A program made the translations under genes and the position numbers. The notes below the pieces were generated by a model. That model did not search any database, was not told the DNA's origin, and worked only from the letters and a program-made list of their open reading frames with translations. From Candidatus Latescibacterota bacterium (GTDB lineage Bacteria; Latescibacterota; UBA2968; GCA-2709665): a DNA stretch of 64,000 bases. Where the stretch lies: positions 1,824,001 through 1,888,000 of the forward strand of contig OZ244937.1 in assembly GCA_965222075.1 (NCBI GenBank). The letters are read 5' to 3'. Below, piece by piece: positions 1-54,395 of the stretch. Numbering within the stretch: the stretch's first letter is position 1; every line of letters begins with the position of its first letter.

Positions 1-3000
1 CAAACAGCGCCCGCAGATAGTCGTTCACCTCCGTCACCGTACCCACCGTGGACCGGGGATTCTTGCTGGCCGCCTTCTGCTCGATCGCAATCGCCGGTGA
101 AAGCCCCACCACCCGGTCCACCTTTGGTTTGGGCATCCGCCCCAGGAACTGCCTGGCGTAGGCCGACAGCGACTCCACGTAGCGCCGCTGTCCCTCCGCG
201 TAGACCGTATCCAATGCCAGCGACGACTTCCCCGACCCCGACACCCCCGAAATCACCGTCAGCCTCTCCCTGGGAATCACCGCATCCACATCCTTCAGAT
301 TGTTCTCCCGCGCCCCCAGCACCTCGATCTTCCGAACCCGCCCGTTTCGCCGTCGCCCCGTCCGGCACCCCGCTCCTGCTCCCGTCCCGGTTGCAGGTTC
401 AACGTTGAACGTTGAACGGTCTTCCAACACCGTCCGCAGCGCCCTCCCCGTATGCGACGTCTCCACTCCCGCCACCGCTTCCGGCGTCCCTTCTGCGACC
501 ACCTCTCCCCCCGCTTCTCCGCCCTCCGGCCCCAGGTCGATCACCCAGTCCGCCGTCTTGACCACCTCTAAGTTGTGTTCGATCACCACCACCGTATTCC
601 CCAGGTCTACCAGCCGGTGAAGCACGTTCAGCAGGTTTTGAATATCGGCAAAATGCAGCCCTGTGGTCGGCTCGTCCAGGATGTAGAGCGTCCGCCCGGT
701 GCTCCTGCGGCAGAGCTCCTTCGCCAGCTTCACCCGCTGCGCCTCTCCTCCCGATAAGGTCGGCGCGGGCTGTCCCAGATGGACGTAGCCCATCCCCACG
801 TCCACCAGCACCTTGAGCACCCGGTGGATCCGGGGCACGTTCTTGAAAAACGCGCATGCCTCCTCCACTTCCATCTCCAGCACATCCGCAATCGAGGCTC
901 CCCTGTACGTCACGTCCAGGGTCTCCCGGTTGAACCGCCGCCCTTCGCAGACCGGGCAGGCCACCCACACATCCGCCAGGAAATCCATCTCCACCAGGTT
1001 GGCCCCGTTCCCCTGGCAGGCCTCGCATCGCCCCCCCTTCACGTTAAAACTGAACCGCCCCGGTTTGTAGCCCCGCACCTTCGACTCCGGCAGCTCGGCA
1101 AAAAGCGCCCGGATCGGGTCGCACGCCCCCGTGTACGTCGCCGGATTGCTCCGGGGCGTCCGCCCGATCGGCTGCTGATCGATCTCGATCACCTTGTCCA
1201 GGTGCGCCATCCCCTCGATCCGCCGGTAGGCCCCCGGTTCCGTCTCCGCCCGGTTCAGCTCCCGGGCCAGCACCCGGTAGAGAATATGGTCAACCAGGGA
1301 ACTCTTTCCCGACCCCGACACGCCCGTCACACAGACCAGCGCCCGCAGCGGGACCTTCACGTCTACGTTCTTCAAATTGTTCTGCCTCGCGCCCCGCACC
1401 CTCAGCCACTTCCCGTTCACCCTCCGCCGCTGCGGGATCGGGATCGCCTGCTTCCCCGACAGATAGGCCCCGGTAATCGACCCTCGAGCGCGGGCCACCC
1501 GCCGCCAGTCCCCCGAGGCCACCACCTTCCCCCCCAGGTGCCCCGGCCCCGGGCCGAAATCCACCACCCGGTCCGCCCGGCGCATGGTCTCCTCGTCGTG
1601 CTCCACCACAATCACCGTATTCCCGGCGTCCCTGAGGCTGCACAGCGCGTCCAACAGCCTCCGGTTGTCCCGGTGGTGCAGCCCGATCGACGGCTCGTCC
1701 AGGACGTAGGTCACCCCCACCAGCCCGCTCCCAATCTGTCCCGCCAGCCGGATGCGTTGCGCTTCGCCTCCCGACAGCGTCGGCGCCGTTCGGTCCAGGC
1801 TCAGATAGTCCAGACCCACATCCAGCAAAAACGTCAACCGTCCCGTAACCTCCTTCAGCCCGTCCTCCGCAACCGTCTCCTGCGTCGGTGTCAGCGTCAG
1901 CCCCGCAAAAAAGGCATACGCGTCTTCCACCGACATAGCCATCACCTCCGGCAGCGACCGCCCCTCGATCTTCACCGCCAGGGCCTCCGGCCGCAGCCTC
2001 GCGCCCCTGCAATCCGGACAGGAGCCCGTGTGCATAAAAGCCCCCACCTTTCGCTTCCAGAACGCCGTATTGGCCTCGGCGTAGCGCCGCTCTAAGGGCG
2101 GCAGGATGCCCTCAAACGTATCCCGGTGCCGGTAGACCTCCCCGTTTGACCGCCGCCACTCAAACCGGATCTTCCCGAAGACCCCGTAGAGCAGTTCCTG
2201 CCGCCCCTCCTCCGGGATCTCCTTCCAGGGCGTATGCACGCTCGCCCCGTGCCGCTTGAGCACCCCCTCGTAGTAGTGAATCTTCCACCGGTTGCGCGGC
2301 ACGCCAATCGGAGCGATCGCCCCCTCCATCACCGACAGGCGATCCTCCGGCACCACCAGCGCAGTATCCATCGCAATCCGGGTGCCCAGCCCCCGGCAGG
2401 TGGGACACATCCCCTGGGGACTGTTAAACGAAAAAAGCTGGGGCGTGGGCTCGACCGCGCTCAGCCCGCAGTGGGGACAGGCAAAGGTAGAACTCAGCAG
2501 GAGGTCCTCTGCCTCCTCCACGCTCACGATAAGCGTCCCCTTCCCCAGCGCCAGCGCCCCATCCACTGCCTCTCCAAACCGCGCCTGAGCCTCGGACCGC
2601 ACCACCAGACGGTCCACCACCACGTCAATATCGTGCCGGATGTACCGCTCTAAACGCTGTGTACCTGTCTGCGTGCGTGCAGCAGCACGCACAGGCAGGT
2701 CGGTCAGATTCACAATCCGTCCGTCCACCCGCGCCCGGATGTAGCCCTCTCGCTGCAGATCCTCGAACAGGTCCAGGTACTCCCCCTTGCGCCCCCTCAC
2801 CAGCGGCGCCAGCACGTGGACGCGCGTCCCTTCCTCCAGGGCCATGATCCGATCCACGATTCCGTCTCGCGTCTGCGCCCCGATCGGAGCCCCGCAGGAC
2901 GCACAGTGAGGCGTGCCGATGCGCGCAAACAGCACCCGCAGGTAGTCGGTGATCTCCGTCATCGTTCCCACCGTGGAGCGGGGGTTGCGTCCGGCCGTCT

Positions 3001-3268
3001 TCTGCTGGATCGACACGGTTGGCGTCAGACCGGTAATCTGGTCCACATCGGGCTTCTCCATCTGCCCCAGAAACTGCCGGGCGTAGGCCGACAGCGACTC
3101 GATGTAGCGCCGTTGCCCTTCGGCGTAAATCGTATCGAACGCTAAAGAGGACTTTCCGGACCCGGACACGCCGGTAAAACAGATCAGCGCATTGCGTGGA
3201 AGCTCCAGATCCACGTCTTTCAGATTGTGGACGCGTGCTCCTTTAATCACGATGTTTCGAGTTTCCAT
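1..3268 (-). CDS. uvrA: Excinuclease ABC subunit A, tandem-fused double-length form; 3' end lies outside the window
   Basis: Manual minus-strand translation from ATG at 3268: METRNIVIKGARVHNLKDVDLELPRNALICFTGVSGSGKSSLAFDTIYAEGQRRYIESLS. The same frame gives VVVIEHNLEVVKTADWVIDLGPEGG near 590-520, then a second UvrA start (IEVLGARENNLKDVD...GVSGSGKSSLALDTVYAEGQRRYVESLS) near 330-170. Confidence 0.95.
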   Translation of the reverse strand, partial: METRNIVIKGARVHNLKDVDLELPRNALICFTGVSGSGKSSLAFDTIYAEGQRRYIESLSAYARQFLGQMEKPDVDQITGLTPTVSIQQKTAGRNPRSTVGTMTEITDYLRVLFARIGTPHCASCGAPIGAQTRDGIVDRIMALEEGTRVHVLAPLVRGRKGEYLDLFEDLQREGYIRARVDGRIVNLTDLPVRAAARTQTGTQRLERYIRHDIDVVVDRLVVRSEAQARFGEAVDGALALGKGTLIVSVEEAEDLLLSSTFACPHCGLSAVEPTPQLFSFNSPQGMCPTCRGLGTRIAMDTALVVPEDRLSVMEGAIAPIGVPRNRWKIHYYEGVLKRHGASVHTPWKEIPEEGRQELLYGVFGKIRFEWRRSNGEVYRHRDTFEGILPPLERRYAEANTAFWKRKVGAFMHTGSCPDCRGARLRPEALAVKIEGRSLPEVMAMSVEDAYAFFAGLTLTPTQETVAEDGLKEVTGRLTFLLDVGLDYLSLDRTAPTLSGGEAQRIRLAGQIGSGLVGVTYVLDEPSIGLHHRDNRRLLDALCSLRDAGNTVIVVEHDEETMRRADRVVDFGPGPGHLGGKVVASGDWRRVARARGSITGAYLSGKQAIPIPQRRRVNGKWLRVRGARQNNLKNVDVKVPLRALVCVTGVSGSGKSSLVDHILYRVLARELNRAETEPGAYRRIEGMAHLDKVIEIDQQPIGRTPRSNPATYTGACDPIRALFAELPESKVRGYKPGRFSFNVKGGRCEACQGNGANLVEMDFLADVWVACPVCEGRRFNRETLDVTYRGASIADVLEMEVEEACAFFKNVPRIHRVLKVLVDVGMGYVHLGQPAPTLSGGEAQRVKLAKELCRRSTGRTLYILDEPTTGLHFADIQNLLNVLHRLVDLGNTVVVIEHNLEVVKTADWVIDLGPEGGEAGGEVVAEGTPEAVAGVETSHTGRALRTVLEDRSTFNVEPATGTGAGAGCRTGRRRNGRVRKIEVLGARENNLKDVDAVIPRERLTVISGVSGSGKSSLALDTVYAEGQRRYVESLSAYARQFLGRMPKPKVDRVVGLSPAIAIEQKAASKNPRSTVGTVTEVNDYLRALF
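2664..2699 (-). repeat. 36 bp palindromic mini-element inserted in frame in uvrA (adds LPVRAAARTQTG)
   Basis: Minus strand reads cctgcctgtgcgtgctgctgcacgcacgcagacagg; removing it restores VNLTD-TQRLERYIRHDIDVVVDRL. Confidence 0.9.
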
Positions 3269-3471
3269 AAGATTTGGAGGTTCTCCGGACGGAGGTCGTA
3301 TTGGGAGGTTGGCTGACGGCGTTTGGCCGGACAGCCAGACGATATGGGGGAGGACCTGCTATGGGGGAGGACTTTCTCGGATATCGGGTACCATCAAAAG
3401 ATACCGGAACAGGAGAATATACTACTCATTTGTTCACATATCAAGCAAAAAACAAAACGCGCTGCCTTCAG

Positions 3472-3499
3472 GCAGGGGCAATTCGCGAACTGCCCCTGC
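3472..3499. repeat. REP-like hairpin GCAGGGGCAATTCGCGAACTGCCCCTGC
   Basis: Near-perfect inverted repeat resembling GTAGGGGC-type REPs, just downstream of the AAA/DUF4143 gene. Confidence 0.7.
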
Positions 3500-3534
3500 T
3501 CCGACCTGCTCGACGGTGGATTCGGTGAGGGTGG

Positions 3535-22165: not shown

Positions 22166-22582
22166 ATGATTGATTACGACAAGTTTCAGATGTCGCTCAA
22201 ACGCCTGGAAGAGCAGCACGAGAATTACCAGCAACTCGACGCCTCGCTACCGGAATTGACCCAGGAAGCCATCGCCGAGTCGGTCATCCAGCGTTTCGAG
22301 ACCTGCTATGACTGCCTGTGGAAGGTATTGAAACGATACCTGACTGAAGAACTGGGCATCCCTGACACGCCCAACAGTCCCAAGCCCATCTTCAGACTGG
22401 CCCACGAGAACCATCTGTTCGACTCGTCGCTGGAGCAATGGCTCGGCTATGCGGATCGGCGCATCGATACCACCCACGACTACAGCGGTGAGAAGGCGAA
22501 AGCCTGTCTGGACATCATGGGCGCGTTCATCGACGACGCCATAGGCCTCTACCAGACTATGAGCGGGGAAACATGGGAATAA
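22166..22582 (+). CDS. Nucleotidyltransferase substrate-binding protein (HI0074-type HEPN)
   Basis: SVIQRFETCYDCLWKVLKRYL, SPKPIFR, RIDTTHDY. Confidence 0.88.
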   Translation: MIDYDKFQMSLKRLEEQHENYQQLDASLPELTQEAIAESVIQRFETCYDCLWKVLKRYLTEELGIPDTPNSPKPIFRLAHENHLFDSSLEQWLGYADRRIDTTHDYSGEKAKACLDIMGAFIDDAIGLYQTMSGETWE

Positions 22583-24381
22583 ACCAGGACATTGACATCA
22601 CCGCAGAGCAGCGCAAAACCGTTCTGGCGTTGCTCCAAAGGCATCTGCCGAACACCACCGCCTGGGTCTATGGCTCCCGCGCCCAATGGACCTCGCGGCC
22701 GCAATCCGATCTCGACATGGTGGTATTCGCAACGCCGGAGCAAAACAGCCGGGTTTCCGATCTCAGGGAATCATTCGAGGAAAGCAACCTGCCGTTTCGA
22801 GTGGATTTGTTTATCTGGGATGAAGTGCCCGAGCAGTTCCGAAATCAGATTGAAGCCGAGCATGCGGTGTTGGCGGAGAGAGAAGAACAATCGCGGCTAA
22901 CTTTAAACCTAGCTACCGCAGACGAGGCCGCTCCCTTGCGAGAAATTCTCGCCTACACACGCGATGGTGAGTGGGGAGCGGGAGATATAAACGCCAACCT
23001 CATTCCTATGCGAGTTATCCGAGGCACGGATTTTGAAGCTGTAAGTCGCGGGAGTTTGGCGAATGTTCCAACTCGATACATTCGTCCTGACGTGTCTGCA
23101 AGAAAGACTCTGAAGCCTTGGGACATACTTATCGAGACGGCAGGGGGATCTAAAAATCGTCCGACAGGTCGCACATTGTTGGTTCACCCACGAATTTTGG
23201 AACGCTCGGAGATCCCTGTCACTTGTGCGAGCTTTGCCCGTTTCCTCCGTATCCATTGTGATCGGGCGAACCCAGCATACATTTATTGGTTTCTTCAACA
23301 CCTATATTCCATCGGTGAAATGGAAAAGCATCAAGTTCAACATACAGGTGTTGCTCGATTTCAATTTACAGATTTTGCCGCGAATATCGAAGTTCCGCTT
23401 CCTCCCCTCCCCGAACAACGTGCCATCGCCCACATCCTGGGCACGCTGGACGACAAGATCGAGCTGAACCGGCGCATGAACGAGACGCTGGAGGAGATGG
23501 CCCGGGCGCTGTTCAAGTCGTGGTTCGTCGATTTCCTGCCTGTGCGTGCGAAACAACGTGCACGCACGCCTGCCTGCGTCCGCAGGACAGGCAGGCAGAC
23601 AGGTGATCCCGTCCGCGCCAAAGCGGCCCTCATTACTCCCCCTCCGGGGGGGAGTGATTGGACCGTCGAACGGGCCCGCGCCTACCTGCCTGCCGCGCGG
23701 GGCTTGGCGCAGGCAGGTCTGGCCGGCATGGACGCCAGCATCGCCGACCTCTTTCCCGACCGGCTCGTGGACTCGGAGCTGGGGCCGATACCTGAGGGGT
23801 GGGAGGTTGGCGTTCTGGATGATGCTATAGAACTCCTCAGCGGCGGAACCCCTCGCACATCGGTAGCCAGCTACTGGGGTGGAGACATTCCCTGGTATAC
23901 CGCGAAAGACGCTCCCTCCCTGAGCGACGTTTTTGTTTTGGACACTGAAAGGACCATTACACAAGCAGGAGTTGAGAACAGTGCTACCAATATCCTTCCC
24001 TTCGGAACAACCATCATCACTGCCAGAGGTACGGTAGGCAGGCTGGCCTGTCTTGGAGTGCCGATGGCCATGAATCAGACCTGTTACGGTATCCGAGGTG
24101 CCCGAGGCTACCCGAACTTCTTCACATACTGGAACGTCAGGAGGACGGTAGATGAGCTGCAGAGCCGAACCCATGGCACTATCTTCGACACGATAACACG
24201 CCAGACTTTCAAACTTGTCGAGACAGCATTGCCGCCTGCGGAACTGGCGGAGGCGTTTGAGTTGACAGTAACCCCTGTGATGGGACGCATTCTCTGCAAC
24301 CTGCTGGAGTCTCGCACCCTCGCCACCCTGCGGGATGCGCTGCTGCCGAAGTTGGTGTCTGGCGAAGTACGGATTAGATGA
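22573..24381 (+). CDS. hsdS: Type I R-M specificity subunit with an N-terminal MNT nucleotidyltransferase fusion
   Basis: N-terminal VYGSRAQWTSRPQSDLD...FRVDL; HsdS repeats LPPLPEQRAIAHILGTLDDKIELNRRMNETLEEMARALFKSWF, ELGPIPEGW, LRDALLPKLVSGE. Confidence 0.93.
   Translation: MGINQDIDITAEQRKTVLALLQRHLPNTTAWVYGSRAQWTSRPQSDLDMVVFATPEQNSRVSDLRESFEESNLPFRVDLFIWDEVPEQFRNQIEAEHAVLAEREEQSRLTLNLATADEAAPLREILAYTRDGEWGAGDINANLIPMRVIRGTDFEAVSRGSLANVPTRYIRPDVSARKTLKPWDILIETAGGSKNRPTGRTLLVHPRILERSEIPVTCASFARFLRIHCDRANPAYIYWFLQHLYSIGEMEKHQVQHTGVARFQFTDFAANIEVPLPPLPEQRAIAHILGTLDDKIELNRRMNETLEEMARALFKSWFVDFLPVRAKQRARTPACVRRTGRQTGDPVRAKAALITPPPGGSDWTVERARAYLPAARGLAQAGLAGMDASIADLFPDRLVDSELGPIPEGWEVGVLDDAIELLSGGTPRTSVASYWGGDIPWYTAKDAPSLSDVFVLDTERTITQAGVENSATNILPFGTTIITARGTVGRLACLGVPMAMNQTCYGIRGARGYPNFFTYWNVRRTVDELQSRTHGTIFDTITRQTFKLVETALPPAELAEAFELTVTPVMGRILCNLLESRTLATLRDALLPKLVSGEVRIR
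23535..23603 (+). repeat. Nested palindromic mini-elements in hsdS (42 bp outer, 27 bp inner at 23569-23595)
   Basis: Removal restores the conserved WFVDFDPVRAK; both lengths are multiples of 3. Confidence 0.9.
23685..23717 (+). repeat. 33 bp palindromic mini-element in frame in hsdS
   Basis: cctgcctgccgcgcggggcttggcgcaggcagg; removal gives RARAYLAGMD. Confidence 0.85.
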
Positions 24382-28157: not shown

Positions 28158-28232
28158 ATGCTCACCATCGCTGAAGCCGATGTTGAGCAGGCCGCCCTCA
28201 CCTGGTGCCTGCCTGCGCGGAGCGCGCTGGGA
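28158..28232 (+). pseudogene. Dead hsdR start fragment (scar A) broken at half of a CCTGCCTG element
   Basis: ggaacccctATG CTC ACC ATC GCT GAA GCC GAT GTT GAG CAG GCC GCC CTC ACC TGG versus true hsdR ggaacccctATG ACC ACC ATC ACC GAA GCC GAC GTT GAA. Confidence 0.85.
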
Positions 28233-28263
28233 TGTGGAAAACAAACCATGTAGGAGCGTGCTA

Positions 28264-29142
28264 ATGAGTGAGCCATTGGGATTTTCGGTGAGAATCTTCG
28301 TCCCTTCGGGCGAGCCGGAAGGCCCGCGTGTGATTGAGAAATCGAATTGGACTGGACAGGGTCTTGTTTTTCCCCGTCCGCTCTTCGCCGAAGTTCGCAG
28401 CCGGGAGGAACTCAACCGCACCGGCGTGTATGTTCTCTGGGGACCCGGCAGATCAGAGCAACTGCCGCGCGCCTATGTGGGCGAGGGCGATGTTTTGCTG
28501 CCGCGGTTGGACAGCCACGCGAAGAAAAAGGACTTCTGGACCCATGGAATTGTCTTCACCAGCAAGGACCAGAGTCTGAACAAGGCACACGTCCAGCATC
28601 TCGAAGCGCGGCTGGTGGGACTTGCGGCCGAGGCAAAGCGCTGCGAGCTGGACAATGCGAACAACCCGCAGATGCCATCGCTATCGGATGCAGATAAGGC
28701 GGATGCGGAGCTGTATCTGGCCGACATGTTGCTATGCCTGCCGGTTGTAGGCGTAAGTTTCTTCGAAAAGCCGCGGGAGCCAGCGGGAAAGAGTCAAGAC
28801 CTGTTCCTGAACGCCAAAGGCATACAGGCACGTGGTTATGAAGGAACGGGCGATTTCGTCGTACGCACCGATTCGGAAGCGGTCAAAAACGAGGTTGCTT
28901 CGATCTCCCCCTCTATCTCCGATCTGCGGAAGGCGCTGATAAAACAGGGTGTTCTTGAAGATACGGGCACCGCGTACCGGTTCGTTCAGGACTACCCCTT
29001 CAGTTCACCCTCCAACGCAGCCAGCGTCCTATTGGGTATGAAAAGCAATGGGCGCATCGAATGGAAGGATGCCGAGGGAAGATCGTTAAAGGAAATCCAG
29101 GACGCAGCAGTGGAGGGTACCGATGAACCGGCCGTCGAGTAA
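28264..29142 (+). CDS. GIY-YIG nuclease family protein with DUF4357 domain
   Basis: GVYVLWG...YVGEGD, HVQHLEARL, FSSPSNAA...NGRIEWK. Confidence 0.88.
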   Translation: MSEPLGFSVRIFVPSGEPEGPRVIEKSNWTGQGLVFPRPLFAEVRSREELNRTGVYVLWGPGRSEQLPRAYVGEGDVLLPRLDSHAKKKDFWTHGIVFTSKDQSLNKAHVQHLEARLVGLAAEAKRCELDNANNPQMPSLSDADKADAELYLADMLLCLPVVGVSFFEKPREPAGKSQDLFLNAKGIQARGYEGTGDFVVRTDSEAVKNEVASISPSISDLRKALIKQGVLEDTGTAYRFVQDYPFSSPSNAASVLLGMKSNGRIEWKDAEGRSLKEIQDAAVEGTDEPAVE

Positions 29143-33879: not shown

Positions 33880-35250
33880 AGGCGCGTATTTCGTGACGAT
33901 GGTCGTCCAGGGCCGGCCGTGCCTATTTGGCGCGCCGGGTGTGGGAGGCGTTGCCCCACCGGTTTTCAGGTGTTGAGATGGGTCCGTTTGTGGTCATGCC
34001 AAACCATATTCACACGATCATCATCCTGCACGGAACCGTAGGGGCGTCCCTTGTGGGCGCCCAATCCACGCACAACAGGGCAATCACAAGGGTTGCCCCT
34101 ACATTGGACGATGTGATCGGACCGGAATGGGACCGGGGTCGAGAATAGTACGATGCGGTGGAATACGGTTACGACAAACCAAATCCCGTCCGCATACACC
34201 ACCTGTAGCGCCCCTGGTGGGCGCCCGACCCACACCCAACAGGGCAACCACAAGGGTTGCCCCTACAAGAACCCTCATGTCCCCTGCCGGGGGTGACGTG
34301 TGCCATTCCAGGAGAACGCCCCATTGAAACACCGCTACAACCCGGACCACCATCACCGCAGGTCCATCCGACTGCGGGGATACGACTACACACAGGCGGG
34401 CGCGTATTTCGTGACGATGGTCGTCCAGGGCCGGTTGTGCCTGTTCGGCGATGTGATCGGCGCAGAGATGCGTTTGAATGAGGCTGGGGAAATGGCGCAC
34501 CGGGTGTGGGAGGCGTTGCCCCATCGGTTTCCAGGCGTTGAGATGGGGCCTTGTGTGGTCATGCCAAACCATATTCACGCGATCATCGTCCTGCACGGAA
34601 CCGTAGGGGCGTCCCTTGTGGGCGCCGACCCACGTACAACAGGGCAATCACAAGGGTTGCCCCTACATTGGACGATGTGATCGGACCGGAATGGGACCGG
34701 GGTCGAGAATAGTACGATGCGGTGGAATACGGTTACGACAAACCAAATCCCGTCCGCATACACCACCTGTAGCGCCCCTGGTGGGCGCCCGACCCACACC
34801 CAACAGGGCAACCACAAGGGTTGCCCCTACAAGAACCCTCATGTCCCCTGCCGGGGGTGACGTGTGCCATTCCAGGAGAACGCCCCATTGAAACACCGCT
34901 ACAACCCGGACCACCATCACCGCAGGTCCATCCGACTGCGGGGATACGACTACACACAGGCGGGCGCGTATTTCGTGACGATGGTCGTCCAGGGCCGGTT
35001 GTGCCTGTTCGGCGATGTGATCGGCGCAGAGATGCGTTTGAATGAGGCTGGGGAAATGGCGCGCCGGGTGTGGGAGACGTTGCCCCATCGGTTTCCAGGC
35101 GTTGAGATGGGGCCTTGTGTGGTCATGCCAAACCATATTCACGCGATCACCGTCCTGCACGGAACCGTAGGGGCGCCCCTTGTGGGCGCCCAATCCACGC
35201 CCAACAGGGCAACCACAAGGGTTGCCCCTACATTGGGCGATGTGATCGGT
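33880..35250 (+). repeat. About 564 bp tandem repeat (roughly 2.4 units) of the RAYT 5' half plus REP doublets
   Basis: GTAGGGGCG occurs at 34038, 34603 and 35167; further doublets near 34205 and 34769; duplicated ORFs are offset by 564. Confidence 0.9.
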
Positions 35251-35472
35251 GCGTACAAATCGTTGACCACGGTGGAATATGTGGGAGGCGCCCAGGCCAG
35301 GGGGTGGACACGGTTTCGGGACCGGCTGTGGCAGCGGAACTACTACGAACACATTGTGAGGGACGACGAGTCCCTTGGGAGAATCGAAGGATATATTCTC
35401 GACAACCCGGCAAATTGGTCACTCGACGAAGAGAATCCCCTGAACGTGTCGACGGTATCGGAACCCCTATGA
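34864..35472 (+). CDS. REP-associated tyrosine (Y1/HUH) transposase, RAYT
   Basis: [46 protein letters not shown]; truncated copies at 34300-34680 and about 33880-34120. Confidence 0.92.
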
Positions 35473-38400
35473 CCACCATCACCGAAGCCGACGTTGAAGT
35501 CGCCGCCCTGGACTGGCTGGCGGGCCTCGGTTGGCAGGTCGCGCACGGGCCGGACATCGCGCCGGATACACCGAACGCCGAACGAGGCGACTACGGGCAG
35601 GTCGTGCTGGAACCGCGCCTGCGGGATTCCCTTGCCGAACTGAACCCCGCCCTGCCCCCCGACGCCCTTGACGACGCCTACCGCAGGCTGACCCGCCCCG
35701 AAGGCTCGACCCTGGAGGCACGCAACCGCGCCTTCCACCGGATGCTCGTCGACGGTGGGACAGTGGGATACCGGGGCGACGATGGCGCCGTCCGCTGGGA
35801 ACAGGCAAAGGTCATCGACTTCGACAACCCTGGCAACAACGACTGGCTGGCCGTCAACCAGTTCACCGTCACGGAGAATAAGAACACGCGCAGGCCCGAC
35901 GTGGTGCTGTTCGTCAACGGCCTGCCCCTGTGCGTGATCGAGTTGAAGAACCCGGCGGACGAGGACGCCACCATCTGGACGGCATGGCACCAGCTCCAGA
36001 CCTACAAGGCTGAACTGCCCACCCTCTTCTCCATGAACGAGGCGCTCATGGTCTCGGACGGGACCGAAGCCCGCATAGGCACGCTGACCTCCGGCAGGGA
36101 GTGGTTCAAGCCCTGGCGCACTATTGCGGGGGAGACGCTGGCCGACCGGCTCTTGACCGAGCTTCAGGTAATGCTGGAAGGTGTCTTTGAGCGAAGCCGT
36201 TTCCTCGGGCTCGTCCGCGACTTCATCGTTTTCGATGACGACGGCAGCGGCGCGCTGGAGAAAAAGATGGCGGGCTATCACCAGTTCCACGCGGTCAGGG
36301 TCGCGGTTGACGAAACGCTGCGCGCGGCGGAGTTACAACGATCAGCCGACAGGACCGTTGACACTGGCGGAAGGTACGAGACGGGCCGCAAGCCCGGGGG
36401 TGAGGCCGGCGACCGCCGTATCGGCGTGGTGTGGCACACTCAGGGGTCCGGCAAGAGCCTGACCATGGCCTTCTACGCCGGACGGATCGTTCTCGACCCG
36501 GCCATGGAGAACCCCACCATCGTCGTCCTCACCGACCGCAACGACCTGGACGACCAGCTTTTCGGCACCTTCTCCCGCTGCCAGGATCTGCTGCGCCAGC
36601 CGCCAGCCCAGGCGGAGAGCCGGACCGACCTGAGAAACAAACTCTCGGTGAATGCCGGTGGCGTGGTGTTCACAACGATCCAAAAGTTCTTCCCCGAGGA
36701 GAAGGGCGATACCCACCCAACGCTCTCCCTGCGCCGCAACATCGTGGTCATCGCCGACGAGGCCCACCGCAGCCAGTACGACTTCATCGACGGATTCGCA
36801 CGCCACATGCGAGACGCGTTGCCCAACGCCTCTTTCGTCGGCTTTACCGGTACGCCCATAGAACTTCAGGACGCCAACACGCGGGCCGTGTTCGGGGACT
36901 ACATCAGCATCTACGACATCCAGCGTTCCGTCGAGGACGGGGCCACGGTGCCGATCTACTACGAGAGTCGGCTGGCCAGGCTGACGCTCGATGAGGCCGA
37001 GAGGCCGCTCATTGACCCGGAGTTCGAAGAGGCGACCGAAGGCGAGGAAGTCGAGCGCAAGGAGAAGCTCAAGACCCGCTGGGCACAGCTCGAAGCCATC
37101 GTCGGCGCCGAGAAGCGGCTGAAGCTCGTCGCCGAGGACATCGTCGCCCATTTTGAGCAAAGGCTCGAATCCCTTGATGGCAAGGCGATGGTCGTCTGCA
37201 TGAGCCGACGCATCTGCATCGACCTCTACCACGAACTGGTGAGGCTACGCCCTGATTGGCATCACGAGGATGACGACAAGGGGTACCTCAAAGTCGTGAT
37301 GACCGGTTCGGCCTCCGACCCCGTGGATTGGCAGCCGCACATCCGCAACAAGCCGCGACGGGAGGCGCTGGCCAAGCGGTTCCGCGACCCCGACGATCCC
37401 CTGAGGGTCGTGCTGGTGCGCGACATGTGGCTCACCGGCTTCGACGCGCCCAGCCTGCACACCATGTACGTGGACAAACCGATGCGCGGCCATGGGCTGA
37501 TGCAGGCCATCGCCCGGGTCAACCGCGTGTTCAGGGATAAGCCGGGCGGCCTCGTCGTCGATTACCTGGGACTCGCCCACGAACTCAAGCGCGCATTGGC
37601 GACCTACACCGAAAGCGGCGGCACCGGGCAAACCGCACTCGACCAAAAAGAAGCGGTGGCGGTCATGCTGGAGAAATACGAAATCTGTTGCGGCCTGTTC
37701 CACGGCTTCGACCGGTCCAGGTGGATCACCGGCACACCGGCGGAACGCCTGAGCCTGCTACCGGCCGCGCAGGAACACATCCTGGCGCAAGAGAACGGCA
37801 AGGACCGCTGCGTGCAGGCGGTGCGCGAGCTTTCCCAGGCCTTCGCCCTGGCCGTCCCCCACGAGGACGCGCTGCGCATCCGGGACGACATCGGGTTCTT
37901 TCAAGCGGTTCGAGGGCAGCTGATGAAGCGGGCCGGCGGCGAGGTACGTCCGGAGGAAGAGTTGGACCACGCCGTGCGCCAGATCATCTCCCGCGCAGTG
38001 GCCTCCGAGGGCGTCATCGACATCTTCGCCGCCGCGGGTCTGGAAAAGCCGGACATCTCGGTGTTGTCGGACGAGTTCCTGGCCGAGGTGCGGGGGATGC
38101 CCCAGCGCAACCTCGCAGTCGAGCTGTTACAGAAGCTACTCAAGGGCGAACTCGCCACCCGCCGCCGGAAGAACGTCGTCCAGGCCCGTTCTTTCGCCCA
38201 GATGCTGGAACAGACCCTCCGCCGCTATCAGAACCGCGCCGTCGAAGCCGCGCAGGTGATCGAGGAGCTGATCCAGCTTGCAAAAGACATGCGGGAGGCC
38301 AACGCCCGCGGCGAGACGCTCGGACTCTCGGCGGACGAACTGGCCTTCTACGACGCGTTGGAGACCAACGACAGCGCCGTCCAGGTCCTGGGCGACGAGA

Positions 38401-38609
38401 CCCTGCGCACCATAGCCCGCAAGCTGGTCGAAACCGTCCGCAACAACGTCACCATCGACTGGACCCTGCGCGAGAACATCCGTGCGCAGCTGCGGGTGCT
38501 GGTCAAGCGCACGCTGCGCAAGTATGGCTACCCACCCGACAAGCAGGAAAAGGCAACACAAACCGTCCTGGAGCAAGCCGAGGTCCTATCCGCCGGATGG
38601 GCTGTGTGA
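35469..38609 (+). CDS. hsdR: Type I restriction endonuclease subunit R
   Basis: [60 protein letters not shown]; ATG overlaps the RAYT stop. Confidence 0.97.
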
Positions 38610-45669: not shown

Positions 45670-45694
45670 CCTGCCTGTGCCGAAGGCAGACAGG
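45670..45694 (+). repeat. 25 bp palindromic mini-element (non-coding)
   Basis: cctgcctgtgccgaaggcagacagg. Confidence 0.85.
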
Positions 45695-46460
45695 TATGAA
45701 AGGGTTCAACACGACGTCAATGGAGGTTCTCTATGAAAGTTGCGACGAAGTTTGTATCCGCCTTAAGTCCAGATCAGATCCAACACCTTGAAGATTTAGC
45801 GGAACGTGATTCGGTCAGGCGAGTTCGAATGCGAGCCCATAGCATTTTACTCAGTTCAAGGGGTTCGAGCATGGATGAGATTGCCAGGATATACCAAGTG
45901 CATCGCGATACGGTTTCTTCCTGGATTGACAATTTTGAGCACCTTGGAGTGGATGGATTGAGAGATAAGCCTCGAAGTGGGGGTCCTCCCAAGTTAAATG
46001 AGCAAGAAAAAGAAGTGGCAAAAGAGCTCCTCAAGACCCATTCCAACGCGCCTTCAATGGTCTTAGCCCTCTTAAGCGAGAAAACGGGAAAAACCATCAG
46101 CCGTTCCAGCTTAAGACGGATTGCGAAAGGGGCAGGCCTGCGTTGGAAACGCGTGAGAAAATCGCTTAAAACCAAACGAGATGATGAGGCGTTTGATCAG
46201 GCGAAAAAAGAGATTGAAGGGTTAAAAAAAACATCAATCCAGAACGCTTGACCTGTATTACTTTGACGAAGCTGGATTTTCTTTGGATCCGAGTATTCCC
46301 TACGCCTGGCAGCCTGTAGGTGAAACCATAGAGGTGCCTGTCGCCAAGAGCAAACGCCTCAATGTTCTGGGATTTCTCAACACAGACAATGACCTCACTC
46401 CTTTCTGCGTGGAGGGCAGCGTTACGAGTGACATTGTGATCGGATGTTTTGATCTTTTTA

Positions 46461-46494
46461 CCTGCCTGTGCGTGCGGGCACGCACGCAGACAGG
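46461..46494 (+). repeat. 34 bp palindromic mini-element frameshifting IS630 orfB
   Basis: cctgcctgtgcgtgcgggcacgcacgcagacagg; removal restores FDLFSETITKKTVVIIDNAPIH. Confidence 0.92.
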
Positions 46495-46848
46495 GCGAGA
46501 CGATCACCAAAAAAACCGTGGTTATTATTGACAATGCGCCCATCCACACAAGTCAGGCGTTTCAGAAAAGGGTGCCCATCTGGAAAAAGAAGGGCTTGGT
46601 CCTCTATTTTTTACCCGGATACGCACCCGAACTCAACCTCATCGAAATCTTGTGGCGTTTTATCAAGTATTGGTGGTTGCCCTTTTCAGCCTACCTAAAT
46701 TTCCGTGCTTTGGTTGAGGCTGTTGAAGATATTCTGGTGAATGTGGGATCGAAATATAAAATCGCTTTCCAGTAAACCATTCAATATGCCACAAAACTCA
46801 TAGACAACTACTTAACTTCCATTTAACCCACAACAACGGAGGCCCAAA

Positions 46849-48254: not shown

Positions 48255-48580
48255 ACCTCAGAAGCTACTTTGTCAACCACCAGCATATGATGCACTACGA
48301 CATCTACCTCAAAAAAGGCTATCCGACCTGCCTGTGTGTTGCACGCAGACAGGTCTCTACAGGCGTGGTCGAAGGCACCTGCGGCTCGCTGGTCAAAGAC
48401 CGGATGGAGAACAGCGGCATGCGCTGGTCCATCACCGGTGCTCAGGCTGTCTTGGCACAACGTGCGGTCGTGAAAAATGGCGACTGGGGTGACTTCTGGA
48501 ACTACTACATCGACTCCCAAAGAGAGCGGCTCTATCCAACTGTGTACCAGAGAGTCCATCTATACGAAAAAACCGCTTAA
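48255..48580 (+). pseudogene. ISKra4-like transposase C-terminal remnant with a 27 bp palindromic insert at 48327-48353
   Basis: MHYDIYLKKGYP[insert]STGVVEGTCGSLVKDRMENSGMRWS; removing the insert gives GYPISTGVVEG. Confidence 0.8.
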
Positions 48581-49839: not shown

Positions 49840-49856
49840 ATCGAAAAGGAGTTCCC

Positions 49857-50771
49857 ATGTCAAGCTCTCCCCTCAACATCCTCCTCGTCGGCGGCAGCGG
49901 GTTCCTCAGCGGCACCCTGGCGCGCAGGGCTGTCGCGCAGGGCCATCATGTCTGGGCCGTCACGCGGGGCCAGAGGGACCTTCTCGACGGGGTCACCGGC
50001 ATCACGGCCGACCGCCACGACCGGGACGCCTTCCAGCAGGCCATCGCCGGCGCAGGGATGGAATGGGACCTGACCGTGGACTGCATCGGGTACGACCCGG
50101 TCGATGCAAAACAGGATATCGCCGTCTTCCGGGACCTGACGCCCCATTTCGTCTTCGTCTCCACCGACTTCGTCTTCGACCCGGCCCACCGCACCTTTCC
50201 CCAGCCCGAAGAGAGCGACCACTACCTCACCAATAATACCTACGGGGCAAAAAAACGCCGCTGCGAATTGGAAATTCTCAACGGCGACACCGGCGGCATG
50301 GCCTGGACGATCCTGCGCCCCTGCCACATCTACGGACCCGGCTCTCTGCTCGGCTGCCTCCCCCTTCACAGCCGGGACCAAGACTTGATTGCTAAGCTGA
50401 AGGCCGGAGAACCGCTTCGGCTCGTCGGAGGCGGCCACTTTCTTCAGCAGCCCATCCTCGCCCGGGACCTGTCCGACCTCGTCCTCAGCTTCCACGGCAA
50501 CGAACAGACCTGCGGCGAAATCTTCTGCGCCGCCGGCCCGGACATCATCGAATCGGTGGAATACTACCGGATCATCGCCCGCATCCTGGATGCCCCGGAG
50601 CCGACCATCGAGGAAATCCCGGTAAGCCGGCACCTGACCGAACAGCCCCAATCCGTCTCCTTCGTCTGTCACCGCATCTACAGCCTGGACAAATTAGAAT
50701 CCACCGGCGCCAGCGTCCCATCAACCCCCGTTGAACAGGGCCTCCGCGAACACGTCGAAAGCCTGCTTTAA
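49857..50771 (+). CDS. NAD-dependent epimerase/dehydratase family protein
   Basis: LVGGSGFLSG, YGAKK, ILRPCHIYGPG. Confidence 0.88.
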   Translation: MSSSPLNILLVGGSGFLSGTLARRAVAQGHHVWAVTRGQRDLLDGVTGITADRHDRDAFQQAIAGAGMEWDLTVDCIGYDPVDAKQDIAVFRDLTPHFVFVSTDFVFDPAHRTFPQPEESDHYLTNNTYGAKKRRCELEILNGDTGGMAWTILRPCHIYGPGSLLGCLPLHSRDQDLIAKLKAGEPLRLVGGGHFLQQPILARDLSDLVLSFHGNEQTCGEIFCAAGPDIIESVEYYRIIARILDAPEPTIEEIPVSRHLTEQPQSVSFVCHRIYSLDKLESTGASVPSTPVEQGLREHVESLL

Positions 50772-50823
50772 AAATACGGGCGACCCGCCGATCGCCCGTA
50801 CCAATTCTTCTTCGGAGATCTCC

Positions 50824-51621
50824 ATGCTAAGAATCCCCATAACCATGTGCCACGGCATCAACCCCAGGGGCGGCCCCCCCCTCACCGAAGACCATTTCGA
50901 CGTCCTGGTTCGAATCGCACACGAAATGGGATTTACATCCATCACCTACAACGACCTGGCCGCCTGGCGGGACAATGCGGGAACGCTTCCCGAGCGACCG
51001 ATCATGTTCGACTTCGACCATCCCGTGAAATCGATGCGCTACGAAATCCACAGTGTGCTCGACCGGTACGGCTACCGGGGCAACCTGTTCATTAACACCG
51101 GGCCAATGGAGCCTGGCAACAAAGCATTCGGCGCCGAGACAATGACCTGGGATGAGACCCGCGAACTGGTGGACCTGGGCTGGCACGTCGGCGCGCACAC
51201 CGTGACGCATCCGAACCTGTCCACCCTGTTCACCGAAGACCCGACCGGAGAGAAGCTGTCCTGGGAGCTTGAAACGTGCGATCATACGCTCACCGAACAC
51301 CTCGGCATCCGACCCCTGGACTTTGCCTTTACCGGCACGAGCTGGAGCAGCTTGGCCGAAAAACTGGTCATGCAGCGCTACCGGTTCGGCCGGCTGTGGA
51401 TCGTCGGCTCCGAATACGAGGCCGACGGCAAACAGGTCCGTTACGCCGACCTGGTGGGTGTAGATGGAGAAGACGAAGCGGATGGCGGTCCCCCGACGGC
51501 GGCGCGCTATATCACGCGAGATACGCCCCCTTACCGTTTGCCCTCCATGGAGATTCAGTGTTCGCTGATCTATACGCCCGAAGCGTTCAGGGCGTATCTG
51601 GAGGGCGCGTTAGGGCAATGA
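50824..51621 (+). CDS. Polysaccharide deacetylase family protein
   Basis: LPERPIMFDFDH, MTWDE, VGAHTVTHPNL. Confidence 0.8.
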   Translation: MLRIPITMCHGINPRGGPPLTEDHFDVLVRIAHEMGFTSITYNDLAAWRDNAGTLPERPIMFDFDHPVKSMRYEIHSVLDRYGYRGNLFINTGPMEPGNKAFGAETMTWDETRELVDLGWHVGAHTVTHPNLSTLFTEDPTGEKLSWELETCDHTLTEHLGIRPLDFAFTGTSWSSLAEKLVMQRYRFGRLWIVGSEYEADGKQVRYADLVGVDGEDEADGGPPTAARYITRDTPPYRLPSMEIQCSLIYTPEAFRAYLEGALGQ

Positions 51622-51775
51622 AACAAAACCAGGACGTTAAAGCAACAAATACTGCCAAAAATACGATCTCTTTTTTCTTGTCCCTTCCACCTGTTAGCCA
51701 AGTATGTAATTCCCAATTTTTACAGCCGCCTTTTTTGTAAGGTCTCCCTATTCTGAAAGGAGCACCCACCTGACC

Positions 51776-53059
51776 ATGGCCAACACAACCCTCTTTGACA
51801 CCTCTTACGAAAGTCGCAAACGTCCTTTGTTGAAGCAAGTACTGAATCGGCTTCGCCCCATGTACACCAACGAGGAACTCGACGTCCTCCGCATCGATTC
51901 CATCAGCCGGGGTGTCCTCTCCCAGCCTTCCGGACGGGGATTTGTCAACCGGGACATCCTGGAAACCGTCCTGGGCAACCTCCTCGAATGCGTGGCTCCC
52001 GGCTCGCACAATGTACTGCAGATCCCCCGGAGTTCAGACCTGGCCGAAGACATCGAAGAGATCGCGGACCAGCTCTATGCCATGATCATCCAGTCCCTCC
52101 TGGCGGCCGAAGGCGATGGCGCCGACATCGAAACCTACGCCCTGGAGACCACTTTTGCCCTCATTTCCGAACTCCCCCGGCTCAAAGAACGGGCCCTGTG
52201 GAACCGCTTCGCCTCGCTGAAAGACCCCGCAGTCTGGGACGCCTACATCACCGCCAGAGACAAATCTTGCGCCGACAAACTCGTCGACATCGACTTTACC
52301 CCCGCCATCGACGCGGCCATCAACGGGCGGGATTTCGCCCCTTACCGGGAGGTCCTCAAGGAGCATCGGTTCGACTTCGCCTTCGGTTATTTGATGCAGC
52401 TGGTCATCAGCACCTACCCCGGCTGGCGCGTGCTTTTCTACCACGACATCGCCCACGCGCTCACCCAGTCTGGCCCCGTACTCGGCATCCCCGGCATTCA
52501 ACGCATCCCCGTGCCGCTCCTGCCCAGGGCCATCTCCGAACTCGGCGGCCGCTACTATCAGGCCGACCTCCACCCCGAAACCGACATCGGTGACGCCAAC
52601 TTCTTAGACCACCCCCACCGGGGCCTCACCACCGGCCAGACCGGCGTCATCGGTTCGGGCTGCTACATCTATCCCTGCACCATGGGCGGTCTCAGCGGCA
52701 AGGTCCGGCAGCGCCATCCCATCATCGGAGACCGCGTCCAGATCGGCACCGATGCCACCCTTCTGGGGCCGGTGCAGATTGGAGAGCACGCCACTGTGGG
52801 GCCCAACACCCAGATCTACGGCTATGTGCAGACCGGCCCGGAGTGCCGCATCGCCTCTTCGGTCGTCATCGGCACTGTATTGAGCGGCGCCAGAAGGCCC
52901 GGCAACATCCACCTGGGACGGAGCGTGCGCGTGGGCGACGGCACCGTGATCGAAAACAGCACCGAACTCGACCTGGCCATCCCCGACAAGGCAGAGATCC
53001 CCGCACGCAGCCACGTCATCAACGATGGATTTGGGAATCCGAGATTCGTGACAGAATAA
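51776..53059 (+). CDS. Serine O-acetyltransferase-like hexapeptide-repeat protein with a long N-terminal region
   Basis: ADLHPETDIG..FLDH..G, RHPIIGDRVQIG..ATLLGPVQIG. Confidence 0.7.
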   Translation: MANTTLFDTSYESRKRPLLKQVLNRLRPMYTNEELDVLRIDSISRGVLSQPSGRGFVNRDILETVLGNLLECVAPGSHNVLQIPRSSDLAEDIEEIADQLYAMIIQSLLAAEGDGADIETYALETTFALISELPRLKERALWNRFASLKDPAVWDAYITARDKSCADKLVDIDFTPAIDAAINGRDFAPYREVLKEHRFDFAFGYLMQLVISTYPGWRVLFYHDIAHALTQSGPVLGIPGIQRIPVPLLPRAISELGGRYYQADLHPETDIGDANFLDHPHRGLTTGQTGVIGSGCYIYPCTMGGLSGKVRQRHPIIGDRVQIGTDATLLGPVQIGEHATVGPNTQIYGYVQTGPECRIASSVVIGTVLSGARRPGNIHLGRSVRVGDGTVIENSTELDLAIPDKAEIPARSHVINDGFGNPRFVTE

Positions 53060-53062
53060 ATA

Positions 53063-53097
53063 AAAGGGGGCAGACCTTTGCAGGTCCTGCCCCCTTA
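53063..53097. terminator. Bidirectional hairpin between convergent genes
   Basis: AAGGGGGCAG-ACC...GGT-CCTGCCCCCTT. Confidence 0.7.
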
Positions 53098-54174
53098 AAC
53101 CTGCTCGAACGGCAGCTCTGCAGACGGCTCGCCCGATGCGCAGAACGAAATCACGCGGTCGTAAATGGACGGCCCATTCAGCTCCCGGTAATACGCAAAC
53201 AGATATTCATTCATATACCCCGCCCACTTCCCCCCCCGCGCCTCGGCCCACGCACAGACTGCCGCATCGCTCCCCACAACCCCGTACCACTCCCGCGCGA
53301 GCTTCAGCACCCAGGTGTCCACCGGCACGGCATCGAGCCGCTCTAAGGAAAAAAGGGCGATGCACTTGCCCACCTTCAGTCCCACCCCGGTGCCCGCCAG
53401 CGCCCGAAGCCCATCCGCAACCTCCCGCCACGTCTCCAGACCGACCCGGGCCGATGCCCCTTCCAGGGTGTCCGCCACATACCGCGCCGCCGTGGCCACC
53501 CGCTCGGACCGCCAGCCGAACCGGTGGCGCCTGAAATAGCGCCCGTTCAGGTCGGCCAGCGCATCCGGAGCCGGAAACGTCCAGTATCTTTCCCCCATAA
53601 ATTCAATTTCCCGCCCCAGAATCCGTGCCAGGAAATTGATCCGCCGCTTTGTCAGCGTCATATGCGCCTGCACCGACAGCACGTATGAGATCACACACTC
53701 AAACGGTTCCTGCCGCACAAACCGGAATCCCCGCAGGAGGTCTCTTGCCCTCTGCAAATACCGGTCTCCCCTCGGCGCCCGCACCCCGGGCGCTTCGTCA
53801 ACCCGCAGATACCACCGGAGAAATTCCGGCGCCGCCACCTCGCCCACACAGGTCGCCACCCGACCCGCCGAAGCCCGGTAAAAGACCCGGTCCCCCTCCT
53901 GCCGCAGGTGAAACGCCGTCCCGTAGGCGATCCCCTTCCACCAGCCGTCCACATCCCGCCCCCACCGGAAGACCTGTCCGGAAGCCAGGATATGGCCCAG
54001 GTGGAAATCAACCGCCGCAACCGTGCCCTCCACCGGGTCTGCTGCACGCACCTCAGGTACCGGCCCTGGCGAGGCTGTCCGCTCCTGTTCGCAGCGACTC
54101 AAGGCGTAGCAGACCCGGCATACCTCCAGGCGGGCGTCAAACCGTCCGAGACATCGTGGGAAATTGTTCGTCAC
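53095..54174 (-). CDS. 8-oxoguanine DNA glycosylase/AP lyase (Ogg/HhH-GPD) family
   Basis: SGQVFRW, RQEPFECVISY, GVGLKVGKCIALFSL, VPVDTWV. Confidence 0.85.
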   Translation of the reverse strand: MTNNFPRCLGRFDARLEVCRVCYALSRCEQERTASPGPVPEVRAADPVEGTVAAVDFHLGHILASGQVFRWGRDVDGWWKGIAYGTAFHLRQEGDRVFYRASAGRVATCVGEVAAPEFLRWYLRVDEAPGVRAPRGDRYLQRARDLLRGFRFVRQEPFECVISYVLSVQAHMTLTKRRINFLARILGREIEFMGERYWTFPAPDALADLNGRYFRRHRFGWRSERVATAARYVADTLEGASARVGLETWREVADGLRALAGTGVGLKVGKCIALFSLERLDAVPVDTWVLKLAREWYGVVGSDAAVCAWAEARGGKWAGYMNEYLFAYYRELNGPSIYDRVISFCASGEPSAELPFEQV

Positions 54175-54366
54175 TCACACGCGCTGAATAAATCGGCTGG
54201 GTTGCATGGACTTTCTTGAAATACAGACTCGGCTTGCTCAAACAGCCTGTATGCTTCCTGCCAGGCTGCGCGATAACGCTTTTTTGTAATATATCTTTAT
54301 TTATTGCCATAAACAAGCGGCATCACGAGGGTGTCCCCATTACGAAAATCTCGCAGAATGCCCCGG

Positions 54367-54395
54367 CCTGCCGAGCAGAACTCGGCGCAGGCAGG
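54367..54395. repeat. 29 bp variant palindromic mini-element (intergenic)
   Basis: cctgccgagcagaactcggcgcaggcagg. Confidence 0.7.

Follow-up and report, generated by a model that had tools for sequence, protein, structure and literature searches.

The 64,000-nucleotide stretch analysed here, called the window throughout, covers positions 1824001-1888000 of the only contig (C1) of a Candidatus Latescibacterota genome (designated G000; 5,360,005 bp, 59.3% G+C). It carries a family of short palindromic elements, with the conserved ends CCTGYCTG and CAGRCAGG, which lie inside genes, in a decayed transposase and in non-coding DNA. The original prediction, made from the window sequence, listed eight copies of this family. 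Searching for the strict pattern CCTGYCTG-N(8-38)-CAGRCAGG returned six matches in the window (at 2664, 23569, 23685, 45670, 46461 and 48327) and none in 100 shuffles of it. Together with direct reading of the remainder, all eight copies were located where they had been placed, and the lengths given for them (36, 42 plus a nested 27, 33, 25, 34, 27 and 29 bp) were correct. Foot sequences are called T-form or A-form when they hold a single T or A, and symmetric otherwise; the caret marks a junction between element and flank, or the point of insertion.

One copy lies in uvrA, a minus-strand gene (2-3268) recognised by its Pfam domains UvrA_inter and UvrA_DNA-bind, whose open reading frame (ORF) of ~1950 aa (1952) extends beyond the window. 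Here, a 36-bp element (2664-2699, plus strand) sits within the UvrA_inter match; it is the T-form CCTGTCTG..CAGGCAGG on the plus strand and yields LPVRAAARTQTG in conceptual translation of the minus strand. A further CCTG-foot element, translated LPAEQNSAQAG, occurs in the same ORF at G000:1823859, just beyond the window. Among the 41 genomes of the order that were searched, nearly all have a uvrA frame of twice the normal length (it is shorter in three fragmented assemblies), which suggests a fused tandem UvrA.

The second host gene is hsdS (22573-24381, plus strand), which encodes the specificity subunit of a type I restriction system, as judged by its Methylase_S domain and its alignment with relatives. 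It holds a composite, found by direct reading (23535-23603, minus strand), in which an outer 42-mer, A-form on the plus strand, has been entered at G^C by a nested 27-mer (23569-23595); the whole is translated as a 23-aa insert, LPVRAKQRARTPACVRRTGRQTG. Downstream of it, a 33-bp pattern match with symmetric ends (23685-23717, minus strand) is translated LPAARGLAQAG. Pfam thus agrees with the assignment of both uvrA and hsdS as host genes.

The remaining copies lie further along the window. A left-half copy (CCTGCCTGCGCGGAGCGCGCTGG...) without a right end was read directly at 28208-28230 (no strand assigned), in a DUF4357 ORF (28180-29142). A non-coding 25-bp pattern match (45670-45694, minus strand; A-form on the plus strand) is flanked by ..CCGA^ and ^TATG. 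It is followed by a 34-bp match (46461-46494, minus strand), whose length is not a multiple of three and which lies where the DDE_3 fragment of a decayed IS630-type transposase begins; the IS630 assignment is upheld by Pfam, with HTH domains in 45733-46251 and a partial DDE_3 domain in 46449-46775. The 27-bp match at 48327-48353 (minus strand; flanks ..CCGA^ and ^TCTC) is of the type that recurs across phyla. It had been placed in an ISKra4-like remnant, an assignment that Pfam did not support, as neither of the two ORFs tested around it gave a match. Finally, a 29-bp intergenic copy, read directly (54367-54395, minus strand), equals the 33-mer type CCTGCCTGCCGAGCAGAACTCGGCGCAGGCAGG minus one CCTG unit, and the full-length 33-mer is present elsewhere in G000.

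Exact insertion of a hairpin unit

Empty orthologous sites were found for both host genes, without target duplication. In the same-genus relative G001, the uvrA site reads ...GCTGTGTA^TCGGTCAG... (TGTA^TCGG), and the insert in G000 amounts to exactly 36 bp, with zero duplicated bases and an unambiguous placement. The corresponding interval measures 435 nt in all 40 relatives searched versus 471 nt in G000. In the case of hsdS, all 11 aligned relatives lack the 23-aa insert and have WFVDF|DPVRAK at its site, and 10 of the 11 lack the 11-aa insert. The expectation that removing an insert restores a family-typical protein therefore holds for uvrA (40 relatives) and for hsdS (11 relatives). The eleventh relative, G003, belongs to another genus and carries an identical 33-mer at the same site of hsdS; the stretch that it shares with G000 is ~150 nt long and identical at ~130 of 142 positions (hand count of the alignment), while both flanks have diverged, and we read this as a conserved hsdS centre that moved en bloc.

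Filled and empty states were also compared in Logan contigs of four sequencing runs from four studies, using as reference the 19-kb region of G000 that is densest in elements (L165). Two of the runs, X3 and X8, each provided one contig that lacks the 36-mer (scored as 'skips 36, ends CC..GG, both 0') and also lacks the 27-mer, the contigs showing 3+2 and 3+3 differences otherwise. In run X1, one contig lacks the 36-mer and another bears an extra 25-nt family-like insertion, which ends in A instead of the family G and whose placement is ambiguous over 6 nt. Given the very high depth of this bin, the contigs from these runs probably represent other copies of a repeated gene rather than alleles of the same locus. 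Target duplication is absent at the three sites that were resolved on the DNA level. Contigs of all four runs enter the element at L165:1178-1210 from both sides, indicating that the hairpins are not an artefact of one assembly. Over the densest 19 kb, synteny with the congener is too broken for more empty sites to be scored. The uvrA empty site and the contigs of these runs bear out the predicted ultra-short mobile element that inserts without target duplication. At L165:300-1517 (G000:C1:2816800-2818017), a segment of 1218 nt that holds one CCTG-foot element is absent from an otherwise collinear G001 contig.

Searched genome-wide, as the original prediction had proposed, the pattern gave 288 matches in G000, 249 of them innermost, where ~0 are expected by chance; in a survey of 41 genomes the count for G000 was 261, and reversing the pattern as a control gave 0. 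Most frequent are the lengths 33 (93 copies), 27 (50), 30 (19), 25 (17) and 36 nt (13), and multiples of three (3n) make up 199 of the 249 innermost copies. Folding with DNA parameters revealed one shared plan in the 45 commonest types. The unit is a GC-rich hairpin of ~18-36 bp whose foot, CCTGYCT(G)/(C)AGRCAGG, is invariant over 7-8 bp, followed by a bulge of 2-3 nt (GC or GCA) on one side of the hairpin only, by an inner stem of 4-7 bp in which the sequence varies by type and the pairing is kept, and by a loop of 3-5 nt. The smallest members measure 18-20 nt. The feet in G000 comprise 57 of T-form, 55 of A-form and 133 symmetric ones, and the single T or A present in about half of the copies leaves one strand with a G.T pair and the other with a C.A mismatch. 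When copies within 3 kb of each other were grouped, 129 of the 167 groups in G000 held a single copy. The inverted doublets typical of repetitive extragenic palindromic (REP) sequences were not found, the composites being nested insertions.

Target statistics were drawn from the 197 copies in G000 whose flanks are free of other family ends, giving 394 junctions. Position -1 is a purine in 89% of these and position -2 is A in only 2%, and C occupies position -4 in 50% versus a background of 30%; insertion thus falls between a purine and a pyrimidine (R^Y), without microhomology. The most frequent half-site is CCGA^ (38 of 394), so the target is weakly palindromic and the full preferred site is the palindrome CCGA^TCGG. 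With elements oriented by their bulge, the preference proves stronger on one side, as TCGG stands on the right flank in 27 of 175 cases versus CCGA on the left flank in 9 of 175. For the 27-mer in other phyla (119 sites), position +1 is C in 82% and position -1 a purine in 80%. The tetranucleotides 5' of the two cut positions resemble each other: CAGG^ where the element ends and, in the flank, CCGA^, CAGA^ or CAGG^. Nesting takes place at fixed internal sites that are the same across loci of different phyla: after CCTGTCTGCG^ in the T-form types and before ^TCGGCAGGCAGG in one 30-mer type.

Copies inside genes

Genes were called with our own rough caller, in which stop-to-stop ORFs are scored by codon usage. 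Of the 197 clean copies, 74 lie in ORFs, which make up 83% of G000 (binomial p 1.6e-46). The rule noticed in the window, that copies in intact genes have 3n lengths, extends to the genome, applying to 71 of 74 copies in ORFs versus 90 of 123 outside (Fisher p 3.8e-5), and to 46 of 48 within ORFs scoring at least 50. The codon phases of the 79 3n copies in ORFs are unequal (42, 19 and 18; p 9e-4): the favoured phase encodes Leu-Pro...Gln-Ala/Thr-Gly, and the other two introduce cysteine. Six-frame openness is a further property of the family, as 176 of the 197 copies are without a stop in any frame, compared with 52 for random genomic pieces of the same length and 79 (maximum 99 in 200 shuffles) for shuffled elements. 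Selection, not targeting, explains the coding pattern: copies in genes persist only if they are 3n, and mostly in the LP..Q(A/T)G frame.

The proposed rule that asymmetric copies always lie in the sense orientation of their host gene did not survive the genome-wide count, which gave 31 copies in the same versus 35 in the opposite direction (14 versus 11 when only copies of T- or A-form are counted). The favoured frame holds 10 copies of the A-form (LPVR..TQTG) and 3 of the T-form. From the even orientation genome-wide and this excess of the A-form we conclude that the sense pattern in the window was a small-sample effect of the favoured frame. The 3n lengths are not universal, since two other genomes (G024 and G170) are rich in 19-, 20- and 31-mers. 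Beyond the phylum, only 8 of 86 copies of the 27-mer (loci of at most 55% G+C) fall in an ORF of at least 600 nt, and 78 lie outside. A 326-aa ORF elsewhere in G000 (C1:318230-319210; L160:2230-3210), a transposase by eye, has stayed open despite four in-frame elements, all of which are in the LP..Q(A/T)G frame.

Distribution among relatives, phyla and viruses

Across the 41 genomes of the order, copy counts range from 0 to 261. Complete genomes with zero copies exist (G006, G022, G026 and G034), and high counts were recorded for G000 (261), G021 (253), G009 (235), G019 (146), G003 (141), G024 (114), G002 (92), G020 (88) and G018 (66). Within the phylum as a whole (168 genomes), high counts are confined to those lineages and a few true copies occur elsewhere (for example, 6 in G047). 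G024, whose congeners G022, G025, G026 and G034 carry no copies, has its own dominant types; one of them recurs in identical form at no fewer than 10 of the places listed, pointing to a recent burst.

The wider distribution was followed with one exact 27-mer, CCTGTCTGCGTGC-NN-CGCACAGGCAGG, which has 25 fixed bases and for which we estimate a chance expectation of ~0.001. It was found in at least 118 stretches of a species-genome collection, whose record titles name about 20 phylum-level groups, at loci of 31-72% G+C. The carriers include Thermodesulfobacteriota/Desulfobacterales, Nitrospirota, Nitrospinota, Verrucomicrobiota/Opitutales, Kiritimatiellae, Lentisphaeria, Planctomycetota (among them Brocadiaceae and Scalindua), Latescibacterota, Poribacteria, Methylomirabilota, Acidobacteriota, Binatia, Tectomicrobia, Elusimicrobia, Spirochaeta, Deferribacteres, Stahlbacteria, Neomarinimicrobiota, Anaerolineae, Bacillota, several classes of Pseudomonadota and one metagenome-assembled genome (MAG) of Methanosarcinales. 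Some of the carrier contigs are 0.2-6 Mb long, so mis-binning cannot explain the breadth in phyla, and each of four carriers labelled as other phyla contains 47-97 copies. The 27-mer was also present in 17 stretches of IMG/VR viral contigs. A blastn search of PLSDB with two variants only, the 33-mer and the 36-mer, and with the low-complexity filter on, gave no match.

The mobile unit and how it may move

Taken together, we consider it highly probable that the family is non-autonomous, REP-like selfish DNA in which a single hairpin of ~18-36 bp is the whole mobile unit; it is a REP-like nano-element of an apparently undescribed 'CCTG-foot' type. According to the model, a structure-specific enzyme acting in trans would recognise the hairpin foot, cut 3' of a C-N-G-R tetranucleotide (CAGG^ at the element end, CCGA^ in the flank), release the hairpin and reseal the donor. 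A reaction of the HUH type offers the best analogy for such movement. Spread from lineage to lineage would occur by riding on transferred DNA such as insertion sequences, restriction-modification genes and phages. A more far-reaching version, to which we give somewhat less than even credence, is that of a nano-transposon at large across bacteria. Here, the hairpin of 18-36 nt would be the complete unit, an unrecognised enzyme (a dedicated one that moves horizontally, or one that hosts conserve) would cut precisely at the foot of the hairpin and join it blunt into R^Y sites, and the element's sequence would have been shaped to be invisible to translation (3n and open in six frames), allowing it to colonise genes and spacers in at least 20 phyla.

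A number of observations count against the reading as REP-like selfish DNA moved in trans. No protein family recurs beside the elements, as judged from all-against-all clustering of 3613 ORFs from 135 loci, in which the families that formed were common ones only (by visible motifs, ABC ATPases, response regulators, sulfatase-like and FabF-like proteins). Likewise, no larger parent element with the same ends was found in G000, where nine candidate end pairs 0.3-6 kb apart all enclose only further small elements. With no enzyme found, movement in trans is argued by analogy. Insertion of the IS608 type into the single-stranded lagging-strand template would yield a replication-strand bias, and the orientation of the elements relative to the replichores, defined by GC skew, displays none (~33 versus 34 and ~51 versus 57, by a hand tally of bins). 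With hitch-hiking alone, the near-identity across phyla is difficult to account for, and the phylum labels of MAGs may be wrong for single short contigs. Moreover, contigs break at elements, so that copy counts in fragmented assemblies are underestimates, and the roughness of our ORF caller makes the coding and non-coding counts approximate.

The alternatives differ in what would carry out the movement, or whether there is any. The original prediction favoured an HUH Y1 transposase, either a REP-associated tyrosine transposase (RAYT) or a TnpA of the IS200/IS605 type, which would excise the hairpin as single-stranded DNA and insert it 3' of a short tetranucleotide in the manner of IS608; we regard this as a possible but doubtful mechanism, and tests of Y1 and RAYT genes gave it no specific support. 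It fits the lack of target duplication, the hairpin with its bulge and G.T mismatch, the two cuts 3' of similar tetranucleotides (CCGA^ and CAGG^) and the strand-dependent target signal. G000 encodes an intact RAYT-like protein with NHVH and Y..NP motifs (C1:3242104-3242868), and this query matches (E at most 1e-5) 12 of 13 relatives with at least 15 copies versus 5 of 28 with fewer, although the genomes compared are related to one another and do not count as independent. A Y1 gene of G021 is followed after 10 nt by an element, one in G003 is flanked by elements, and Y1 homologues occur in all five tested carriers from other labelled phyla; around the type-B Y1 genes of relatives, an element adjoins 2 of 6. 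However, the number of PF01797 matches in the 41 relatives does not track the number of copies (146 copies and 0 matches in G019, 3 and 32 in G004, 1 and 75 in G038), and a Y1 profile built from seven sequences matches G006, G010 and G022, which have 0 or 1 copies, yet barely matches G024, with its 114-140 copies and recent burst. The RAYT gene of G000 stands between ~110-nt repeats of its own with no CCTG element within 3 kb, its orthologues in G009, G012, G017 and G019 likewise have none nearby, and the same is true of the IS200-type TnpA gene (C1:2071937-2072296), which has its own end hairpins. In other phyla, elements flank none of 10 Y1 loci, and the replication-strand bias is missing. 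Other movers were looked for in G000 as well: no small GIY-YIG gene was found, the sole PF01541 match being a 629-aa ORF, and the genes within 21 element clusters or intervals (20 of them clusters of at least three copies) included no specific candidate. A housekeeping enzyme present in nearly all bacteria, such as a type IA topoisomerase, might instead make the cuts and thereby let the hairpin spread in any host, a suggestion we rate as improbable. Type IA topoisomerases prefer C four bases before the cleavage site, and C stands at -4 at every element end (CAGG^) as well as in half of the flank half-sites, well above the background given above; the same element in hosts of such different base composition under about 20 phylum labels, and the failure of the searches for a dedicated gene, point the same way. 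Against it, copy number is very patchy among close relatives that all possess such enzymes, no topoisomerase reaction is known to excise and reinsert a hairpin, and the argument depends on that cleavage rule.

Retention for a host function, with the hairpins serving as transcript ends, RNA stabilisers or sites for nucleoid or repair proteins and spread being secondary, strikes us as unlikely. It would suit the mostly intergenic positions (123 of 197 copies in G000 and, as noted, 78 of 86 in other phyla) and the G.T pairing, which in one orientation becomes a G.U pair in RNA, and roles of this kind have been proposed for REPs (PMC3733652). However, the positions of copies are not conserved among relatives, some close relatives have none at all, copies sit in genes, in decayed transposases and in each other, and the window contains no Rfam match. 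Still less plausible is the view that there is a larger insertion sequence with CCTGCCTG... terminal inverted repeats, mobilised by its DDE transposase, and that the elements are its miniature remnants or the footprints of its excision. The elements do consist essentially of two inverted ends and are frequent in and around decayed transposase genes, but the two marks of that class, a duplicated target and a parent insertion sequence that ends in the same repeats, were not found: duplication is lacking at the three DNA-resolved sites, no end pair encloses a larger element, and no transposase family recurs alongside. Artefacts of assembly or library preparation have next to no likelihood in our estimation. 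Palindromic adapters can enter assemblies and most of the carriers are MAGs; against this stand the many distinct types and nested forms, the frame selection of copies in genes, the presence of both filled and empty states in congeners, the same junctions in contigs of four studies, and the variety of groups and methods by which the carriers were assembled.

Reading the family as REP-like selfish DNA invites comparison with described repeats. What defines a REP is its GTAG or CGTC tag together with its RAYT (PMC3733652, PMC6006769). The CCTG-foot family resembles REPs and REPINs, as these are set out in the same two papers and in a third (PMC3116915), in forming GC-rich imperfect hairpins of 20-40 bp, often with a basal stem, a bulge of 1-3 nt and a second stem; in its patchy occurrence in tens to hundreds of copies, mostly intergenic and without target duplication; and in that some copies lie inside genes, repair genes included. 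It differs in having no GTAG or CGTC tag, the unit running from hairpin foot to hairpin foot with CCGA as the top flank tetranucleotide; in the lack of inverted doublets and of any Y1 gene in G000 flanked by it; and in the recurrence of its sequences under about 20 phylum labels and the high share of copies in ORFs in G000 (74 of 197). The RAYT gene of G000 (C1:3241500-3243000) is flanked on both sides by the ~110-nt repeats mentioned above, which bear GTAG-tagged hairpins (CACAAACTGACAGTTTGTG-CTAC) and number four in the genome; gene and repeats make up a small REPtron of the classical kind, built on a different repeat and distinct from the CCTG family.

Rickettsia palindromic elements (RPEs) are ~100-150 bp long and confined to Rickettsia. 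Our units, at 18-36 bp, are below that size, cross phyla and are mainly intergenic. The shared trait is that RPEs are palindromic repeats placed in frame in functional genes and translated as an extra peptide, as mentioned in two papers (PMC3733652, PMC3184786). The analogy with RPEs drawn in the original prediction thus stands for the in-frame copies within genes and breaks down in other phyla, where the family is mostly intergenic (8 of 86 copies in long ORFs) and REP-like. Nearest in size are the small dispersed repeats (SDR) of cyanobacteria, which Elhai and colleagues reportedly described in 2008 as mobile, ~21-27 nt long, capable of nesting and sometimes inside conserved sequences; their sequences and host group are different. 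A precedent for cross-phylum hairpin repeats with a small dedicated nuclease is the Ssn/NTS system, in which NTS/SRM repeats form hairpins of 20-50 nt in distant bacteria alongside small Ssn single-strand nucleases of the GIY-YIG type (PMC11893778); in contrast, G000 has no small single-domain GIY-YIG gene flanked by repeats. With IS200/IS605 elements, as covered in PMC6006769, the family shares insertion without duplication, hairpin recognition and cleavage 3' of short tetranucleotides. Those elements, however, have two different subterminal hairpins, guide sequences and genes, and show a replication-strand bias, whereas the CCTG unit is a single hairpin without such a bias. The fixed left-flank tetra- or pentanucleotide of the IS200/IS605-derived elements called PATE is also missing, the CCTG target being an R^Y preference with CCGA/TCGG. 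Searches of the literature with ten strings of 12-15 nt and by concept returned no description of a CCTG-foot family, which might be listed in the supplements of PMC3733652 or PMC6006769.

Should the reading as a mobile single hairpin be true, the size floor for mobile DNA would lie at ~20-30 bp, with a hairpin needing no flanking tag, and one sequence family would be circulating among very distant uncultured bacteria and their viruses; the foot sequence and the R^Y target would then provide a defined substrate for an enzyme search. The family stands out for the minimal size of its unit, for inserting exactly and without duplication, and for sequences that are nearly identical across phyla, the mechanism being only partly constrained. 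The combination of six-frame openness and 3n bias clearly exemplifies selection on the sequence of a selfish element itself. In practical terms, the hairpins break short-read assemblies, with contigs ending inside elements, and they lengthen proteins, UvrA and HsdS among them, by short peptides and could mislead gene callers and alignments in MAG-based studies.

Several minor features accompany the elements. The hsdS gene belongs to a cluster of defence-type genes (window 18406-38609) that also comprises Schlafen/AlbA_2 with HATPase_c_4, a nucleotidyltransferase pair, an Mrr_cat nuclease, DUF4357, SIR2_2 and hsdR, and the hsdS ORF as read has a Polbeta nucleotidyltransferase domain at its N-terminus. 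The N-terminal ~100 aa of hsdR (35115-38609; HSDR_N, SWI2_SNF2 and T1RH-like_C) are weakly similar to a Y1 domain (tblastn E 4e-4), and in relatives PF01797 matches occur inside ORFs of 1203-1441 aa that resemble the same hsdR fusion. A second hairpin family (ATTACTCCCCC..GGGGGAGT plus a tail of ~40 nt) is present at window positions 23632-23660 and at L165:3872-3945. It has 11 loose copies in G000, many near-identical ones in G001, G009 and G021, and very high depth in all four sequencing runs compared; one of its hairpins lies in hsdS between the two CCTG inserts and is translated ITPPPGGSD. Lastly, a CRISPR-like repeat, GTTTCAATCCTTGTTCTGGTGGAAGTATTGCCCTGG, occurs ~90 times in G000.

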